A stretch of 64,000 nucleotides of DNA, taken from the IMG/VR virus record IMGVR_UViG_3300025117_000032; one strand, given 5' to 3'. The first letter of the stretch is position 1. Each line of letters begins with the position of its first letter. This DNA comes from a virus. Shown here piece after piece: positions 6,909 to 47,584 of the stretch. The notes under the pieces were generated by a model, which worked only from the letters and a program-made list of their open reading frames with translations, ran no database searches and had not been told where the DNA came from. Both the position numbers and the translations under genes were made by a program.

Positions 6909-7463
6909 TCAACCAACCTTCTTTAAGTTTGTGAGCCTAATGATCTCTGCCCATCTGCTTATCCAATTTCTTTCCCCATGGGCATGTTCAAAGACAAATG
7001 TTCGATCTCCACGACCACGCAGTTTTGTGTACCCACTTGCAAGAGCCTTCGGAGAGAACGCCCCAAGCTTTTGTGTGCTGCCATTCTGGAACAGCAAAGC
7101 AATATCCCCCTGCCCCTCTTCTTTCCAAAGTGCAGCGTCTTGATTGTACTTAACAATCCACTTCTTGACCATACCCTTCAATTTACCATTGTCATTCTCG
7201 CCACCAATTATCAGAACAGAATCCTCTGTTAGTTCTTCCCCACTCTTTGGATCTTGCCATGCACCATCAAGAAAAACATAGCCATACCCAGCCTTTCTTG
7301 CCTCCCTAGCGATCTGCTTATTCAAGGCAATATTTTGTTCCTTGCTTCTCTCTTTGCTACGAAAAGCTGTGATAACCACAACAGGAATATTGTCGTTTTT
7401 AAAGTGACGATATACCCTGGACAAAGTTGTTTCATCTATCCCAGCCAACTCATTCAAATCCAT
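6909..7463 (-). CDS. Conserved phage protein (DUF3293-like)
   Basis: ETTLSRVYRH, VITAFR...N...L...GYGY..LDG.W..EDSVLI...KYNQDA pattern; AGGAG RBS. Confidence 0.55.
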   Translation of the reverse strand: MDLNELAGIDETTLSRVYRHFKNDNIPVVVITAFRSKERSKEQNIALNKQIAREARKAGYGYVFLDGAWQDPKSGEELTEDSVLIIGGENDNGKLKGMVKKWIVKYNQDAALWKEEGQGDIALLFQNGSTQKLGAFSPKALASGYTKLRGRGDRTFVFEHAHGERNWISRWAEIIRLTNLKKVG

Positions 7464-7653: not shown

Positions 7654-8178
7654 TTACACCAACTTACCTTCTTTAAGCCACTTCTCTGTTAGCATGGTTA
7701 AGCTCACAGGAGAAAACTTCCATGGGTCAACTCCAACATCGCATCTAAACCCCTTATCCGGCACAGTACCGTGTCTGTGCCCATGAAGGTGTATGGAACC
7801 ATGACTCATGTTTCGCCAACTCTCAATTGGATAATGGAAGAGGACAACCAATTGCCCCTGGTCTTTTATCTCAAGGTAGGAATTTACAGACTTCCACCCA
7901 TCCCAATTTTTCATATTCTTGGCATCATGGTTGCCAATGATGAAATGCTTACGACCATTGATTTGCTTAAGGATATCTTTAACTTTTTCCCCACCATAAA
8001 AAGACACATCACCAAGGATGAATAGCTCATCATTTGGCTTCACCTTTTCATTCATTCCAGAAACAATGGCATCGTGCATTTCCCAGATAGTTTCAAATGG
8101 GCGATTGCAATACTTGATGATGTTGTTGTGGAAAAGCCTTCAAAGGTGAAAATCTGCGGTATAAAATCTTTCGCTCAT
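7654..8178 (-). CDS. Calcineurin-like metallophosphoesterase, interrupted at codon 13 (TGA + 6 nt)
   Basis: ATG 8178 MSERFYTADFHL*RL FHNNIIKYCNRPF in frame with downstream LGD, GNHD, HYP, HGHxH motifs. Confidence 0.85.
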
Positions 8179-8300
8179 TTCACCAAACCTCCAATCTTTC
8201 GTCCAATTAACCAACCATTATTTAGAAATTGATCAATCTCATTTTGACGAATCATTTTTGTTTCAACCCCATTGTTGATCCAAACTCTATTTTTTATCAA
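8175..8300 (-). pseudogene. Remnant C-terminal DNA-binding module of a homing endonuclease
   Basis: LIKNRVWINNGVETKMIRQNEIDQFLNNGWLIGRK aligns with the C-terminus of the 8571-9278 protein (RVWICKDDKTKMIRPDELTEYTNGGWLKGRK). Confidence 0.6.
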
Positions 8301-8475
8301 ACCCTTGTGTGTCCTTCTGCTTTCTCATCCAATCAATCCTATCCAACAGGATAAGGATCAATTCAACATAATCGTCCTGATCGTACTCCGTATTCAACAC
8401 CCGATATCGCAGCTTGCTGGTTACTGTCTTCGGCATACCACCACTATTCTTTACTCCGATAGTTAGCTTGTTCAT
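8287..8475 (-). CDS. Hypothetical protein
   Basis: GGGGGG RBS, packed ORF. Confidence 0.5.
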   Translation of the reverse strand: MNKLTIGVKNSGGMPKTVTSKLRYRVLNTEYDQDDYVELILILLDRIDWMRKQKDTQGFDKK

Positions 8476-8570: not shown

Positions 8571-9278
8571 TCATTTTGCCTTACCTTTTCTTCCTTTTAA
8601 CCACCCACCATTAGTGTATTCAGTTAATTCATCCGGGCGAATCATTTTTGTTTTATCATCTTTACATATCCAAACTCTATCCAATTTACCGTTCCTCAAC
8701 TTTTCTTTCATTTCTTTTGTTCCCATTGCCTGCTTTGTTTTAGTACTTATGTTTCTTTTTCTTTCTTCTGAAAATGGAACCCCGGTTAATTTTTCTCGTA
8801 TTTTTTCTTTGGTTTCAATTGATCGTGGTTTACTAGACCAAGGGCATTTTTTTCCTTTGTGTATTTTGCTCAATTTCTCTCTTGTTTCTTTACTATGGTG
8901 CTTACCCAAAAAACTTGGGATTCTATTTTCACCCTTTGTTCTATATTCTTTATCCATCCACTTTGCTTTTATTTTATCAGATATTTTTTTCTTTGTTTCA
9001 TCTGCACACCTACCAAAAGAATTTCCGCCATTGTCAATATTGTAACCAACATACTCATCTTTACTATTCAACTCTTTAATCCAATGCTGCTCTTTCTCAT
9101 TCAATTCTTCTTGTGAAGAACACTCGCATAGATTTTCACGAACAAAATTCTGTCTTCCATATTTTTTAATGGCAGCTTGTAATTTCAACCCCGATCCAAT
9201 ATATCGCTTATTGTTTATTGTTGTTTGCCCAACATAAATTTTACCATTTACCAAGTTTGTTGTCTTGTATATTATCAT
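8571..9278 (-). CDS. GIY-YIG homing endonuclease with NUMOD3 repeats
   Basis: IIYKTTNLVNGKIYVGQ...YIGSG...E...GYNI; HSKETREKLS. Confidence 0.9.
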   Translation of the reverse strand: MIIYKTTNLVNGKIYVGQTTINNKRYIGSGLKLQAAIKKYGRQNFVRENLCECSSQEELNEKEQHWIKELNSKDEYVGYNIDNGGNSFGRCADETKKKISDKIKAKWMDKEYRTKGENRIPSFLGKHHSKETREKLSKIHKGKKCPWSSKPRSIETKEKIREKLTGVPFSEERKRNISTKTKQAMGTKEMKEKLRNGKLDRVWICKDDKTKMIRPDELTEYTNGGWLKGRKGKAK

Positions 9279-11026: not shown

Positions 11027-11325
11027 TCATCAATATCACCATAGGGGTCCGCTGGCAAATAGGGGTCTTTGTCCTCATACAACCCAAGCTGAATATCTCT
11101 AATGGTCTTCACCAAATTCAACACTTCGTTAAGAGACACCCCACCAAGCCCAACATTCACAAGCTTACGTCTAATAACCTCAATGTCCCTTCCGGTCAAT
11201 GGCTTGATTTCTATTTGATCACGCTCTTCTTGGTCTACTCTCAAAGCCCCCCTCAAGACAACAAACATGGCAAAGTTTAAGATCAAAGATAAGACACAAA
11301 GCACCAACAATGCAATTAACATCAT
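11005..11325 (-). CDS. Hypothetical membrane protein
   Basis: Hydrophobic N-terminal helix. Confidence 0.55.
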   Translation of the reverse strand: MMLIALLVLCVLSLILNFAMFVVLRGALRVDQEERDQIEIKPLTGRDIEVIRRKLVNVGLGGVSLNEVLNLVKTIRDIQLGLYEDKDPYLPADPYGDIDDWREFQK

Positions 11326-11972
11326 TTCACCCCCTTGGACTCTCTATACAGCTTCATTGTTTCAGGCACAATTGGTTCAATCAATTGTTCTATCGCCCTG
11401 GCATATTCCTGTATCTCCCATTGGGCATGTTCATCATTTCTCAACATCAAAAATTTCAGGAGATTGTTTAGGTCAACTTTTGCCTTAAACGTCACCATCA
11501 TGTTTTGAGGTAATGCCATTCTGGCCTGCTCATTGCAAACACCATTGCCCAGCAAAAAATTATATGCCAAGAAGGAGGTATCAACAACATTTATAAGTGC
11601 TGTACACATCATTATATCATCTTCAAATTCCCCGGTTGACGCTTGCTTGTTTTTATCATCCTGGAATCGCCATTTTTCTGGGTAGTAAAATGACACATTA
11701 TCTTTAGTGTATCTTCTACTTGTTTCACAATAGCTCCAAGTCCTATGTCTTTGCCATTGTCTAACAACAAATAATGGAGCCTTTACTATAAATGTAAACT
11801 CAACAAATTCAAATGGGCTTGTGTGCTTATTTTTCCATAGGTACGCTAACAGCCTCCTATCCCCAAACACTTCAGAAACCTCTCCCCTAGAAACTCTAGC
11901 CGCATTAACTACATCAAGATCCGTTCCCATAAATTTTTCTAACTCGATATATCCATTACCAAGAACAATCAT
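11322..11972 (-). CDS. thyX: FAD-dependent thymidylate synthase
   Basis: VVNAARVS, HTSPFE, RQWQRHRTWSYCETSRRY, EQARMALP, HAQWEI. Confidence 0.95.
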   Translation of the reverse strand: MIVLGNGYIELEKFMGTDLDVVNAARVSRGEVSEVFGDRRLLAYLWKNKHTSPFEFVEFTFIVKAPLFVVRQWQRHRTWSYCETSRRYTKDNVSFYYPEKWRFQDDKNKQASTGEFEDDIMMCTALINVVDTSFLAYNFLLGNGVCNEQARMALPQNMMVTFKAKVDLNNLLKFLMLRNDEHAQWEIQEYARAIEQLIEPIVPETMKLYRESKGVK

Positions 11973-21815: not shown

Positions 21816-22550
21816 TCATTTTTTCTCCCATCGTTTTTTCTGGCTTAAACTCATTTTTAATCTTACTTCTTCTGATACTGGTTTCCTTTTTTTAGCAGCC
21901 TCACTCATTTTTTTTCTCTCATTTGGATCGGAAAAGCGTTTCTTAATTGCCACTGATAATGCTTCTCTATGAGATTTAGATTTTTTTCCCCCATATGAAT
22001 TTTTATACCACCCACGTTTGCTTTTTTCTAACCTTGTTTCACTTATCTTTTTCTTCGTTTTTTCACTATGTTCTTTTCCATACATTCCATTTGTTTCTCC
22101 TGTTAATCTAACTCCATACATTGGGTTGTTTTCTCCAGAATATTTCCCTTTGGCTTTTTCGCTCATTTTTTTCTTTGTTTCTTCGCTGTGTTTTTTTCCA
22201 TAAAATGGGTTTGTTTCTCCTGTTAATCTAACTCCATACATTGGGTTGTTTTCTCCAGGACTTGCCCCATCTCCACCAAGAGTTTGATTATATCCAGACC
22301 TAAATGTGCAATATTCTTCGATGTACTTTATTTCTAGTTTTCCAAGCTCCTCAAATAACAAAGTTTCATCAATTTTTTCTATGGAAAAATTTTCACTTCC
22401 ATATTTCCTGATTGCTCTTTGTATGGAACAATTGATTTTTAATGAGTTTGCATCATATATGTGTTTAAACCACCTTTTTTCCATAGTAAGAGTTGTTTTA
22501 CCAACATACTGTTTTCCATTTATTTTGTTTGTTATCAAATATATTACCAT
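21816..22550 (-). CDS. GIY-YIG homing endonuclease with NUMOD3 repeats
   Basis: VIYLITNKINGKQYVGKT...RAIRKYG...GYNQTLGG; HSEETKKKMS. Confidence 0.9.
   Translation of the reverse strand: MVIYLITNKINGKQYVGKTTLTMEKRWFKHIYDANSLKINCSIQRAIRKYGSENFSIEKIDETLLFEELGKLEIKYIEEYCTFRSGYNQTLGGDGASPGENNPMYGVRLTGETNPFYGKKHSEETKKKMSEKAKGKYSGENNPMYGVRLTGETNGMYGKEHSEKTKKKISETRLEKSKRGWYKNSYGGKKSKSHREALSVAIKKRFSDPNERKKMSEAAKKRKPVSEEVRLKMSLSQKKRWEKK
22090..22258. repeat. 49-bp exact direct repeat inside GIY-YIG gene
   Basis: 22090-22138 equals 22210-22258 (encodes GENNPMYGVRLTGETN twice). Confidence 0.9.
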
Positions 22551-23279: not shown

Positions 23280-23984
23280 TTATAGATAAACCCAATCTTT
23301 CCATTTTTTTGTTTTTGACTTTAATCTATTACTAATTGTCATTCTGGTAACACCAAACACCTTGCTTGCTTCATCTAAAGAATCAAACTGTCTACAACCA
23401 ACAACAAATGACTTATGTAGTTTGTGATTTTTACCACGCATTTTATCTGAAAACGATTCTCTATCTCTTTTTTCCCAGGATTTAGAAATCCCCCTGGATT
23501 GTTTTACTTTGAACTCTAGGCTCTCCATTATTCTTTTTTGTTTGTGCCTAAATTCACTATTTCCCCATAACTCGTTCATTATCTCTCTTGCCCTATTTTT
23601 TCTTTTTGGGGTGTTTTGTAATTTCTTTTGCGCTTCACACAATCTTTTTTTTGTCTCTGGACTATTCATCCTTAATTTGTGTTTAGTTTTTGCTTCGTTT
23701 GACCATTCTCTTCCACTAATTCCCCCTGTTTCTAGGTTGTATGTGTCTCTGCGAAAAACCCACTTGTGGTCAACATATTTTTCTTCTTCAATCATTTCTT
23801 CGTATGAAAACAACTCAACCAATATCTCCCTACTAAAGTTTTGTTTTCCATATTTTCGGATTGCTTTTGTAAGCAACACCCCTGACCCCAAATACCCATC
23901 ATTGAGATTTTTTGTTTTATGAACGCCCCTGTATTTTTTTCCATTTATCAAGTTTGTTGTTTCATAAAGAATGTAATACATCAT
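23280..23984 (-). CDS. GIY-YIG (Seg-like) homing endonuclease
   Basis: ILYETTNLINGKKYRGVHKT..LNDGYLGSG...TYNL..GG; C-terminal HTH (F.SL.EA..FG). Confidence 0.88.
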   Translation of the reverse strand: MMYYILYETTNLINGKKYRGVHKTKNLNDGYLGSGVLLTKAIRKYGKQNFSREILVELFSYEEMIEEEKYVDHKWVFRRDTYNLETGGISGREWSNEAKTKHKLRMNSPETKKRLCEAQKKLQNTPKRKNRAREIMNELWGNSEFRHKQKRIMESLEFKVKQSRGISKSWEKRDRESFSDKMRGKNHKLHKSFVVGCRQFDSLDEASKVFGVTRMTISNRLKSKTKKWKDWVYL

Positions 23985-25131
23985 GTTGAAAGTATTTTTC
24001 TATACCACTCACACCTTTCATTTGTAACATGCTCCAATGAATATTTTGGGTATACCAACTTATACAAATTTTCTGACAACTCTTTTCTCATTGCATCATC
24101 TAGTATCAGTTGCCGAATGTATTTGTGCCATAGCTTATGGTTTTTCCTTGGGTTGACCAACAACGCATTCTCCCTATGAGTTAACAACTGCTTGTAGACA
24201 TACAAATCAGATGCAATCAACGCTTTTTTGCACATACCAGTTTCAATTATCTTCAATTCAGACTTGCACTCATTGAATGTGTGTTCATCTAGCGGTGCCA
24301 AGCAAATGTCCACATGCTTATAGTGGTTTCCATATTGAGTTATGGGAAGTGTTGTCCTTCTTACATACTGTTCTGGTGTTGCCTTACCATTGTCGTTGAA
24401 TATGGCTTCAAATTTGTTCCATATGGACTCTTCTGGGGTTATTTTCCTTGTTCTTTCCTCTTTGGTTAGGGGATGTAATTCAGTAACAGTTCCCCTTGTG
24501 TCATATCCACACATAACAACCTGAATCTTACTAGCAATCTCCTTATCATTGAACAACACATTGAAAGTGCCCTTGATTTTGTCCAAATCTCTCTCATGAC
24601 TTGAGCCACCAATCCAACCAACCCTAACTCTATCTGATTCTGTGGTTGGGTTTTGCCACATCTTCAAATTGGGATCAATAGCATTTGGTATGATGTGAAC
24701 ATTTTTGTTTATGGTCCTTCTTATGTGTTCTGCATAGATTTCTGTGGTTGTTGTAACCCAATCAGCGCACCTTAGATTTTCAATGATTTGGTGATGGATA
24801 CCCTTCGCCACAACCATGTGATAAGCTGGGTGCCCAAAAAACGGCAGCCAGAAGTCGTCAATATCAGAAACAACAATCGCACCGGCTGTGCGAAATTTAT
24901 CAGCCCATAGTGGGGTTGTTTCAGGTTCGGCGATGCGTCTGTGATAGTGGACAATATCAAACTCCCCTATATCGTCCTCTGTTATTGGTTGCATTAGTCT
25001 AATGTCAACCTCAAACTCTTCCCCATGGTTTTTTTGTATCTCTTGTGCAACCCAAATTGATCGGTAAGCTAATAGTGCCCAACACCATAAGAATCGCTGG
25101 GTATGATTAAAATTCTAATTTTGTTGGGCAC
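23981..25131 (-). CDS. GT-B glycosyltransferase, interrupted after codon 20 (TAG + 5 nt)
   Basis: GTG 25131 MPNKIRILIIPSDSYGVGHY [TAGCTTAC] RSIWVAQ... continues in frame into ORF 23981-24994 (DIDD, GWIGGSSHERDL, FNECKSELKIIE). Confidence 0.85.
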
Positions 25132-25138
25132 TATTTGA

Positions 25139-25696
25139 TCACCCACCTTTAATGAATCTGTCATATCTTTCATATAACTCTTCTTTCGTTATTGAACACT
25201 TTGCGTGCTTCGAACTGTTTTCCCCACGATATATTATGCTAAGATTGATAACGCAACCAATTATATGCGGGGGAACATCTTGTTTAAACCCCTCTAGGAC
25301 ACTAAAATTATGATCCAATGTGTATCCAGATGGTTGCAATATGTGTTTTGTTTGGATATATTCACTGTAATTTTCCAGTAAAGATATATCGGAATGCTTT
25401 GTGTACAAATTTACCAACTGTTTATATGCTTCCCATTTTGTTTTTGCAGAAAGTGGTGTCCAATATCCAGTTGACTCATGGTGGACCCTTATGCTATCTC
25501 TATTCTTTTCGTAAAAATTTTTTGATGCATCTGCGATTTTCATTAAACCAGGGTGGCATTCTTTTGTTAAACCTTTATTCCATGTGTCTAATCCAGAATG
25601 AGCGCAAGGTCTGCATTTCCAATTTTTATGCCGCCTTGTCCAATATCTTGGAAAAACTCTAATTAACCCACAGCCAACACAAGTTGCAGTATACAT
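25139..25696 (-). CDS. Putative HNH-type homing endonuclease
   Basis: CxxC..CxxC, WNKGLTK, YTLDHNFSV..GF...NL...ENSSK. Confidence 0.7.
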   Translation of the reverse strand: MYTATCVGCGLIRVFPRYWTRRHKNWKCRPCAHSGLDTWNKGLTKECHPGLMKIADASKNFYEKNRDSIRVHHESTGYWTPLSAKTKWEAYKQLVNLYTKHSDISLLENYSEYIQTKHILQPSGYTLDHNFSVLEGFKQDVPPHIIGCVINLSIIYRGENSSKHAKCSITKEELYERYDRFIKGG

Positions 25697-32123: not shown

Positions 32124-32930
32124 TCAAACCACCTTTCGTTTGTATTCCTTTAGCACAGACCGAATCTTGCTCCACGATACATTAAACTCTACAGAAATTT
32201 TTCTGTATGATAATCCCCCCTCCCTCAATACCAACATTCTTTCCATTTCCAATTCTGTAAACACAATTGTTCTTGATTTTATTAAGTTCTCAATATGTCT
32301 TGAGGATTTTTTCTTTCCAATCAAAGAATCACTAATTTTTTTTCGTTCTTCATTTGATGTAAATCTTCTTTTTGCAGAAATAGATGCAGATTGTTTAAAT
32401 TTTTCCAAATTTTCGGGTGTTATTTCTGCCCAGCGTTTTATTTGGGCTACCCTCATGTTTTGTTTTGCTTCGTCTGTCATCTTTTTTCCAGTATTCGCTA
32501 AAGTTAATCTCTCCCCAAACGATTTTGGATATTTCATTCCAATATGGGATCGACTAATTTTTTTCTTTGTTTCTAATGATGGGTTTATGGTTCCATTTTT
32601 TCTTTTTGTTTCCAAAATTTTACCAATGGTTTCCCGAGTCATTTTTCCAACTCTACCACCATGATCGTTATTATATCCAGACGCATATGAACCAAACTCG
32701 CCAACATATTTCTGTTCCAATATATTCAATTCTTCTCTTGTTTTCCCACTACATAAAACTTTCCAAGTGAAATTGTTTTCCCCATATTTCCTAATTGCAC
32801 AATGAAATGTTGCAGTTGACCCGTTTTTTGCAGATCTAAGGTGCTGTTTTTTTCTAATATCCAACTCAAATTTTGTTTGACCAATATATTGTTTTCCATT
32901 AATTAAATTTTCCGCTATATAAATAATCAT
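32124..32930 (-). CDS. GIY-YIG homing endonuclease with NUMOD3 and C-terminal HTH
   Basis: IIYIAENLINGKQYIGQT...AIRKYG...GYN; GLSYRKIS. Confidence 0.9.
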   Translation of the reverse strand: MIIYIAENLINGKQYIGQTKFELDIRKKQHLRSAKNGSTATFHCAIRKYGENNFTWKVLCSGKTREELNILEQKYVGEFGSYASGYNNDHGGRVGKMTRETIGKILETKRKNGTINPSLETKKKISRSHIGMKYPKSFGERLTLANTGKKMTDEAKQNMRVAQIKRWAEITPENLEKFKQSASISAKRRFTSNEERKKISDSLIGKKKSSRHIENLIKSRTIVFTELEMERMLVLREGGLSYRKISVEFNVSWSKIRSVLKEYKRKVV

Positions 32931-46655: not shown

Positions 46656-46985
46656 TCAATCAGCAATAACCTTTTCATTTATCATTCCATTTCTGATTAG
46701 GGTGTCAGCCAAAACGTGTGCTATTCTGTCAAGGTTTGTGTGCCCCTCTTCTCCCTCAAAACATTTCAACTTGAAGTCCGTTTCTACAGCATGAAGAACC
46801 TCATATATCAACGTCTGAAACTTATCTTCTGGGGTTCTTGTTCCAGAATATATGCGTATGGTTCTATCCCAGAAATCTATCTGACCCCAAAGGGAATCTC
46901 GCTTATGACCATCTACATCGGATGGTCAATCACAATATTCTATTTTGTAAATGAACCCACCAACGTTTATCTTGCTCATTGGCAT
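46656..46985 (-). CDS. Phage metallopeptidase-like protein with in-frame TGA at codon 20 (recoded or pseudogene)
   Basis: MPMSKINVGGFIYKIEYCD*PSDVDGHKRDSLWGQIDFWDRTIRIY...TLIYEVLHAV..., single frame of 110 codons. Confidence 0.6.
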
Positions 46986-47584
46986 TATGAAACACCCCTT
47001 GCAAAATCTATCGCCATCTGTTTAGCATCTTCCATTGTTTCAGCAACCCATTCCCCACGACCAAAATCTTCTGGGTAATATTTGGTTTCAAGCTCTCTAA
47101 TATTAATGTCTTCATCTACGCATTCCCAAGATACCATTACAACTTCATCACCATTAGCATTGAAAGCCCACTCTGCCCTAACATTCTTGCGACCTTTATC
47201 ACTCCAAAAATCTATGGAACACCTTAAAGCATCATCTCTATCCTTTGGTTTATAGTGGCAGTCCCCAAATTTACAAGTAGACCCAATGGTAAAACCATAG
47301 ATTGCACGGTGCGACCAACCAAACCATTTATTGTCAATAGTACAAAACCCAATTGAACAAACAGAATTACCTGGGTTAGCAAGCTCTGGCTTTATGCCCA
47401 TCTTCTTGCATAACTTAACTGCATCTTTTGGTTGCCCTATGAGTAAACCACCCTCTGTGAAAGCTTGTTTCAGGATAATTTTTTCACACCCATGAGCATC
47501 CTCACCACTATATTCCACATCTTTTAAGACATACCCAAACTTTCTCATGTGTCTTTCTTTTAGAACCTTTTTAGTTTCCATCAT
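46985..47584 (-). CDS. Conserved phage protein
   Basis: CSIGF...KWFGWSHRAIYGFTIGS...AKQMAIDFA. Confidence 0.7.
   Translation of the reverse strand: MMETKKVLKERHMRKFGYVLKDVEYSGEDAHGCEKIILKQAFTEGGLLIGQPKDAVKLCKKMGIKPELANPGNSVCSIGFCTIDNKWFGWSHRAIYGFTIGSTCKFGDCHYKPKDRDDALRCSIDFWSDKGRKNVRAEWAFNANGDEVVMVSWECVDEDINIRELETKYYPEDFGRGEWVAETMEDAKQMAIDFARGVS

Follow-up and report, generated by a model that had tools for sequence, protein, structure and literature searches.

The interrupted phosphoesterase gene

The viral DNA recorded in IMG/VR as IMGVR_UViG_3300025117_000032 (64,000 nucleotides (nt); the window, meaning the whole stretch analysed) carries a gene for a calcineurin-like phosphoesterase whose reading frame is broken, after 12 codons, by nine nucleotides that begin with a stop codon. 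The gene lies on the minus strand, as do all other window features whose coordinates are given below. A Shine–Dalgarno (SD) sequence, GGAGG (8192-8188, read directly), stands 9 nt 5' of the ATG start codon (8178-8176). The first piece of the open reading frame (ORF; 8143-8178) comprises 12 codons, translated as MSERFYTADFHL, the last of them the leucine codon CTT (Leu12, 8145-8143). It is followed by the gap itself (8134-8142), made up of TGA (8142-8140), AGG (8139-8137) and a second CTT (8136-8134), directly after which the same frame resumes with TTC CAC AAC AAC ATC and stays open to a TAA stop codon (7656-7654), giving a second piece of 7654-8133. Gene callers annotate a 141-amino-acid (aa) ORF (7654-8079) and nothing else, that is, the 3' part of the second piece. 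A reading made earlier from the letters of the window alone (the sequence-only reading) had proposed that ribosomes hop from the first CTT to the second, and the start codon, the 12 codons, CTT-TGA-AGG-CTT and the open frame beyond were all located as it had claimed. Omission of TGA AGG CTT (or, equivalently, of CTT-TGA-AGG) yields ADFHLFHNNII, the product that it had predicted and the consensus of the family.

Taken whole, the frame matches the phage phosphoesterase family phrog_547 (E 6e-45) and, by profile, the solved Aquifex protein PDB 1xm7 (E 4e-19); a Pfam search with it gave no match. The first piece, which aligns with the consensus MSKKWYTxDFHL, holds the motif I metal ligands D9 and H11. 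The second encodes H17 and then, in order, the motifs GD (G56-D57), GNHD (G82-N83-H84-D85), H (H115) and GHxH (G133-H134-x-H136), all in invariant or nearly invariant alignment columns. With D9 and H11 on the 5' side of the gap and H17 on the 3' side, the DxHxxH spacing is right only when the nine nucleotides are skipped. That spacing is shown by 34 close homologues, by 67 distinct IMG/VR loci (themselves located by the DxHxxH pattern), by further N-termini printed from IMG/VR and by PDB 1xm7, in agreement with what had been said of this phage subfamily. The calcineurin-like phosphoesterase superfamily requires D9 and H11, and both lie outside the annotated 141-aa ORF, which lacks motif I, as had also been noted.

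An insertion within the DxHxxH motif

When 34 homologues from metagenomes (identities of 57-76%, and of 41-53% for a few) are aligned with the window, every other sequence shows a three-column gap exactly at TGA-AGG-CTT: the homologues read D-F-H-L-F-H-x-N-I-I-K-Y-C-N-R-P-F, or a close variant, where the window reads DFHL-stop-R-LFH. The same nine nucleotides are extra in the window in a DNA alignment with six relatives, and they are missing from every homologue examined, the 34 close ones and about 130 more distant loci reading DxHxxH without them. No interruption is seen at this codon in the printed IMG/VR loci, in the 67 loci located by DxHxxH or in the metagenome loci (80 were compared, among the matches listed, with no gapped relative among them), bar two, L149 and L170. 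The second of these is an N-terminally truncated copy. The first, from a soil metagenome (L149:1440-1530), has one extra T between DTHF and GH (CAT TTT CGG...), which could be a +1 frameshift site (UUU C then CGG) or a sequencing error. The homologues P0028 and P0031, which look truncated, were rejected as interrupted genes: both are complete, and only their starts were miscalled. As the homologues lack an insert, the nine nucleotides represent an insertion, placed by the alignments inside the conserved DxHxxH motif. The three extra residues that plain readthrough would introduce, as the sequence-only reading had pointed out, are found in no homologue.

Of 16 contigs on record, six assemblies (Logan, JGI and ENA) made from different samples have the insertion in identical form, and it is thus stable in the population. 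The contigs that carry it are approximately 100% identical to the window over 2-6 kb and so belong to one clonal groundwater/soil phage, found at sites of five studies, for which reason the separate assemblies offer no evolutionary replication. A form without the nine nucleotides, the outcome named beforehand as contrary to a hop, was found neither in the assemblies nor in contigs from four further runs, although minor variants could escape contigs. No RNA runs carrying the sequence are listed. The gene is free of decay: it deviates at one of 67 highly conserved columns (close intact relatives deviate at 0-3), and a good SD sequence and a stop/start overlap with the ORF upstream have been kept.

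Gaps at the same codon in diverged relatives

A scan of IMG/VR for the pattern D-x-H-Leu-stop-Leu-x-H-x-N-I-I recovered three genuine genes of the same family with 6-nt gaps at the codon that is interrupted in the window. All three are on the minus strand of their contigs: L191:2021-2578, with CTT-TGA-CTT, read as DWHL*LKHRNIIKYCNRPF; L192:4894-5256, with CTT-TAA-CTA; and L193:5378-6001, with CTT-TAA-CTT. After a hop, their products would share 30-41% identity with that of the window. In L191 and L193 the frame is open to a natural stop codon and the later motifs are kept; L192 ends at a contig edge. Each follows the rule seen in the window, a take-off codon with a stop in the next position and a matched leucine landing codon. 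When the pattern was relaxed to permit any landing triplet, the extra matches were random and non-coding, so that leucine is the landing codon in three of three (p about 0.002), and CTT is the take-off codon in all four gapped genes, the window included (p about 0.001, given the window's leucine codon usage). In 596 Gb of prokaryote genomes no gapped gene of the family was found, all 20 matches being random.

The arrangement of take-off codon, stop and landing triplet is by itself common by chance, with 115 cases on the coding strand of the window. We therefore rejected the pattern of a codon, a stop, a short gap and the same codon as evidence in its own right, and the case rests on homology and recurrence instead. 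On that footing, the core of the sequence-only reading gains from the three diverged genes of the same family with Leu-stop-Leu gaps, as it does from the homing endonucleases that accompany the gaps and from two more stop-first gaps elsewhere in the window.

Homing endonucleases beside the gaps

Directly upstream of the phosphoesterase gene lies a 41-aa ORF (8175-8300) whose TGA overlaps the phosphoesterase ATG (ATGA). Over 32 aa it is 53% identical to the C-terminus of an intact, free-standing GIY-YIG/NUMOD3 homing endonuclease encoded nearby (8571-9278; Pfam and PHROG matches), with an E value of 9e-11, and it also matches weakly the tail of an HNH-endonuclease PHROG. The identity of the tails marks the 41-aa ORF as a relic of an endonuclease that once stood directly 5' of the phosphoesterase gene. 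The intact GIY-YIG gene sits 0.4 kb upstream of the phosphoesterase gene, between an RNaseH-like gene and a 31-aa ORF, and is one of four paralogues in the 64-kb window (the others being 21816-22550, 23280-23984 and 32124-32930). The nearest relative, L090 (73% DNA identity in the phosphoesterase gene), has neither the GIY-YIG gene nor the relic, and its similarity to the window begins at the ATG.

Between the 31-aa ORF, a conserved membrane peptide, and the relic is a 62-aa ORF without relatives (8287-8475), which takes the place of an unrelated 60-aa ORF in the nearest relative and for which Pfam, PHROG and similarity searches returned nothing informative. The relic is in the +1 frame with respect to this ORF, across GAT AAA AAA TAG. 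A strain variant (L002:2480-2790, from JGI 3300025073) has a 20-nt deletion, flanked by CGAT repeats, within the 62-aa ORF.

Endonucleases are also found at the other gapped loci. In L191 the adjacent 5' ORF, which overlaps the phosphoesterase start, encodes a LAGLIDADG-like endonuclease (Pfam 3e-7, PHROG 3e-17), and in L192 the corresponding ORF, with a stop/start overlap, encodes an HNH endonuclease (PHROG 7e-14); in L193 the adjacent ORF encodes 88 aa of no known kind. A recognisable endonuclease occupies this position in one of the 67 ungapped IMG/VR loci, as against three of the four gapped genes when the window's relic is counted (Fisher p 3e-4). The C-terminal part of phrog_23051, a family of unknown function, is matched both by the upstream ORF of L193 (5998-6264, minus strand; E 8e-3) and by the window ORF that directly precedes a gapped glycosyltransferase gene (25139-25696; E 3e-11). 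The two ORFs have no detectable similarity to one another; they might represent an unrecognised mobile-element gene.

Two further gaps in the window

Two other enzyme genes of the window are interrupted by tiny inserts that begin with a stop codon. In a glycosyltransferase gene with a GTG start (25131) and a body ORF of 23981-24994, an 8-nt gap, TAGCTTAC (25071-25064), separates GVGHY from RSIW. The arrangement is TAT-TAG-CT-TAC, with synonymous tyrosine codons on either side, and the 8 nt are missing from two intact homologues (56-59% identity) and from eight more distant ones. A 10-bp stem (dG -22, z -5.4) extends from the start codon as far as the take-off codon and is not present in the eight ungapped relatives that were folded. 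Several metagenomic relatives have ORFs that begin oddly at ...GHYRSIW or ...RSIW, which suggests, as far as ORF starts can, that there are more gaps among them. The GIY-YIG gene at 23280-23984 overlaps the 3' end of the glycosyltransferase gene.

The second case is a flap endonuclease/RNase H gene (start ATG 46605), split after 23 codons by the 5-nt gap TAGGC (46536-46532) between LLLVDFYN and MFIRSF. An ATG follows directly, a matched landing codon is lacking, and AAT, the last sense codon, marks the end of a strong hairpin (z -5.2); the gap could be a stop-restart split rather than a hop. The gene is uninterrupted in two isolates, Microcystis phage Mel-JY01 and Flavobacterium phage immuto, and a single-protein query of IMG/VR found no relatives of it. 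In those two phages the recombinase gene directly adjoins the nuclease gene, whereas in the window a Tad6-family gene (46985-47584; type I Thoeris inhibitor, Pfam E 1.5e-46) lies between the RecA/UvsX-like gene and the flap endonuclease.

Hairpins at the gaps

At the phosphoesterase site GGTGAAA (8178-8184), which takes in the A of the ATG, and TTTCACC (8145-8151), whose final base is the first of the take-off codon, are exact reverse complements and form a 7-bp stem in the minimum free energy (MFE) fold, as the sequence-only reading had proposed. A second element that it had suggested, a CCT/AGG mini-hairpin around the stop codon, amounts to 3 bp, does not appear as such in the MFE fold and can be neglected. 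The arms of the 7-bp stem have the same geometry as the strong hairpins of L192, L193 and the glycosyltransferase and flap endonuclease gaps. In L192 and L193 the stem that ends at the take-off codon reaches -24.3 kcal/mol (z -5.2) and -29.0 kcal/mol (z -8.8), against an ungapped background of -5.9 +/- 3.7 kcal/mol for the equivalent fold, and gapped and ungapped genes differ in hairpin energy (Mann-Whitney p 0.002). In L193 the entire 11-codon first piece lies within the -29 kcal/mol hairpin, with the AUG in the loop. The stem of L191 is weak and a similar one is found in the ungapped L007, so it could be a by-product of the coding sequence.

In the case of T4 gene 60, it has been suggested that forward movement is driven by mRNA that refolds behind the ribosome (bioRxiv 10.1101/2024.12.09.627546). 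The hairpin that recurs in the present class of gaps may likewise bias forward movement, or it may control initiation, an equally open possibility given that the 3' arm here abuts the P site.

A proposed ribosome hop and its alternatives

We consider it moderately likely, on the evidence of alignment and recurrence, that ribosomes hop from CUU to CUU over a micro coding gap linked to a homing endonuclease, in the manner of a miniature gene 60/MobA system. The nine nucleotides would have arrived with, or been selected because of, the endonuclease formerly directly upstream, of which the C-terminal tail is what is left. In the DNA, the insert would disrupt the conserved DxHxxH-coding sequence, a typical homing-endonuclease target, and the disrupted target would keep the carrier genome from being cleaved, in the way that the 50-nt insert of gene 60 shields T4 from MobA. 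In translation, ribosomes would initiate at ATG 8178, the ATGA overlap probably coupling this start to translation of the upstream ORF, and decode 12 codons, so that UGA enters the A site while CUU in the P site is paired with peptidyl-tRNA-Leu. Some of them would then lose this pairing, move 9 nt along the mRNA, pair again with the second CUU and continue from UUC, producing ...ADFHLFHNNII... with normal DxHxxH spacing, while ribosomes that do not hop would terminate after 12 residues. A hop should give the peptide FYTADFHLFHNNIIK across the junction, with ADFHLFHNNIIK as junction peptide, whereas readthrough should give one of the type FYTADFHLWR. The hop, its efficiency and its role in immunity are what we infer from these arrangements.

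A broader proposal, to which we hold more tentatively and give somewhat less than even weight, is that a portable minimal bypass module travels with several endonuclease families and is used in three genes of this phage. Its parts would be an upstream hairpin, a CUU take-off codon, a stop codon, 0-3 further nucleotides and a leucine landing codon. It would act within the first dozen codons and without a nascent-peptide signal, disrupting the highly conserved DNA of a catalytic motif, and thereby making the host gene immune to cleavage, in such a way that the gene survives.

A number of observations weigh against the hop. Although its arms are exactly complementary and pair in the MFE fold, the window's 7-bp stem is weak (dG -10.7 kcal/mol) and no more stable than shuffled sequence (z about -0.6), and over the corresponding 60 nt eight of the 67 ungapped relatives (12%) match or exceed its stability, so that significant local RNA structure at this site is not supported. 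UGA-A is not known to be a weak termination context. Only 12 residues are made before take-off, which makes a nascent-peptide signal of the gene 60 type, acting 25-30 residues from the P site, impossible. A control scan of IMG/VR found no second 9-nt gap, and, with L192 and L193 related to one another (54% identity), about three independent lineages other than the window carry gaps. Stop-hops that lack stimulation are described as occurring at a low level in E. coli (bioRxiv 10.1101/2024.12.09.627546). The remaining contrary points are that the 9-nt form is a singleton, confined to a single clonal phage, so that selection since the insertion is not measurable; and that a relative, L009 (405-896, protein P0019), has lost the entire motif through a 27-nt in-frame deletion that removes the WYTxDFHLFH block and leaves MSKKSDNIIKY. 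From its sequence L009 carries a different lesion at the same hotspot, and the enzyme is probably dispensable.

These last points, together with the weakness of the stem and a direct repeat, CTTT, that flanks GAAGG, also favour the main rival, a dead gene or immunity scar, in which the insert kills an endonuclease target or is the scar of a repair event and the phosphoesterase is inactive and dispensable, too little full-length protein being made to be of use. The segment adjoining the gene is itself decaying, as the variant with the 20-nt deletion shows, and with its four GIY-YIG genes the phage is rich in endonucleases. The matched CTT would then be a by-product of the insertion mechanism, a 4-nt direct repeat (CTTT...CTTT). 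We regard both the scar and this origin of the repeat as unlikely. The phosphoesterase itself shows no decay, three further lineages, two of them (L191 and L193) with frames intact to their stops, have gaps at this codon, and the stop codon always stands directly after the take-off codon. The landing codons, moreover, are synonymous and not always identical (CTT to CTA in L192, TAT to TAC in the glycosyltransferase gene), which fits selection for tRNA re-pairing better than it fits target-site duplication. Finally, three enzyme genes of one window are interrupted alike within their first 12-23 codons, which is hard to ascribe to random decay.

Termination at the TGA followed by re-initiation downstream, for example at ATG 8079, would account for the 141-aa ORF that the gene callers annotate, and the flap endonuclease gap, with its ATG directly after and no matched landing codon, has the look of a stop-restart. 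The product would lack motif I, and hence show altered or no catalysis, or else form a split enzyme with the 12-residue peptide. We judge either form of this improbable, as no start codon with a usable SD sequence is found within about 60 nt after the TGA (ATG 8079 is preceded by TGGGAA only), and the 21 codons from the gap to ATG 8079, which would go untranslated, are as conserved as the rest (H17, NIIKYCNRPF). That the superfamily needs D9 and H11 is textbook knowledge and tells against a product without them.

Still less probable, to the point of being very doubtful, is readthrough or recoding of the UGA as Trp, Cys or Sec, or under an alternative code, to give DFHL-X-R-LFH, longer by three residues. 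No bacterial stop codon is leakier than UGA, and the frame is open on both sides of it, but no examined homologue has an insertion here, and TGA is the commonest true stop codon of the window, where it terminates 30 of 70 long coding-strand ORFs. As the long ORFs are intact under table 11 and the homologues lack the three codons, an alternative genetic code and selenocysteine were rejected, and since the relatives with 6-nt gaps use TAA as well as TGA, UGA-specific recoding is ruled out as a common mechanism. An assembly or sequencing artefact is ruled out by the identical nine nucleotides in separate Logan, JGI and ENA assemblies from different samples.

If ribosomes do hop from CUU to CUU, the site would exemplify efficient or useful bypassing without the elaborate signals of gene 60, and near the minimal size for such a signal, with 12 nt specifying one leucine after 12 codons. 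A hop would explain how endonucleases can target the DNA of catalytic motifs at no cost to the host gene. It would also mean that gene callers systematically mis-annotate such genes as truncated (the 141-aa ORF without metal ligands being an example), and that one phage with three gaps provides a natural comparison set. Were the module to prove real, natural stop-hopping would be a common decoding mode of phages and not a curiosity. Even if there is no hop, the repeated occurrence of Leu-stop-Leu insertions would still identify this codon as a hotspot of immunity to homing endonucleases.

Neighbouring genes

Directly downstream of the phosphoesterase gene is a gene of the S-adenosylmethionine lyase family (6909-7463; anti-restriction type), and upstream of it lies a ThyX (Thy1) gene (11322-11972). 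In the ungapped relatives (upstream ORFs, L010-L089) the adjacent 5' gene is often of an RNA-repair type: RlaP, RNA ligase, a PNK-like AAA_33 kinase or a cyclic-phosphate processing receiver domain. RtcB is found near the phosphoesterase in L007. Such neighbours hint at a role for the phosphoesterase in RNA end-healing, perhaps against anticodon nucleases.

Comparison with known systems

Shorter counterparts of the bypass signal of T4 gene 60 have long been anticipated by those who study it. The 50-nt bypass insert of gene 60 lies within the MobA homing-endonuclease element (bioRxiv 10.1101/2022.08.31.505936; PMC5009743); it shields the carrier from the nuclease of that same element, and within one cassette position nucleases from different families take each other's place (bioRxiv 10.1101/2022.08.31.505936). 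As in gene 60, the insert in the window is missing from homologues and splits a conserved metal-binding region, and an endonuclease gene or its decayed relic lies upstream. The differences are that the gap is 9 nt and not 50, that the hop would be in frame, that no take-off stem-loop lies inside the gap, and that the host gene and the endonuclease families are others. The 12 codons before take-off leave no place for a nascent-peptide signal, and for the window both bypass and immunity are proposals drawn from sequence.

The programmed +1 frameshift of prfB (RF2) takes place at CUU UGA C, where peptidyl-tRNA-Leu unpairs and re-pairs on the overlapping UUU (+1), aided by an SD sequence 3 nt upstream. 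The P-site/A-site pair, CUU then UGA, is that of the window, but a +1 shift in the window would lead to a dead-end frame, and the protein is restored only by a 9-nt move.

Another parallel is offered by the synthetic stop-hops of Weiss, Dunn, Atkins and Gesteland (1987), which, as described in a later review, involved engineered lacZ in E. coli and were of low efficiency (PMC5009743). There, as here, matched codons flank a stop, the take-off codon is of the Leu CUU type and the whole block specifies one amino acid; the window site differs in being natural and in spending 12 nt on the leucine rather than 9. According to the same 2016 review, no natural in-frame stop-hop was known (PMC5009743), and full-text literature searches found no later published case.

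Short blocks missing from homologous phage genes also interrupt conserved junctions in the gene for the terminase of Streptomyces phage Hau3, a candidate for UUA-triggered bypass of 10-nt inserts (PMC10732093). In that case the bypass was inferred by alignment, with support from mass spectrometry in E. coli, and a stem-loop and an SD sequence were proposed as stimulators (PMC10732093). Unlike the window site, Hau3 presents the A site with a hungry sense codon, UUA, and involves a change of frame and a proposed regulatory role connected with the bldA tRNA, and it has no endonuclease link. The byp elements of Magnusiomyces capitatus mitochondria resemble the window in that several genes of one genome are affected by many short bypassed inserts; they belong, according to the review, to mitochondria, measure 27-55 nt, place an unused codon in the A site and follow relaxed rules of pairing (PMC5009743). 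Set beside these systems, the phosphoesterase site would add to translational bypassing a 9-nt, in-frame form, and a phage with three gaps in a single genome.

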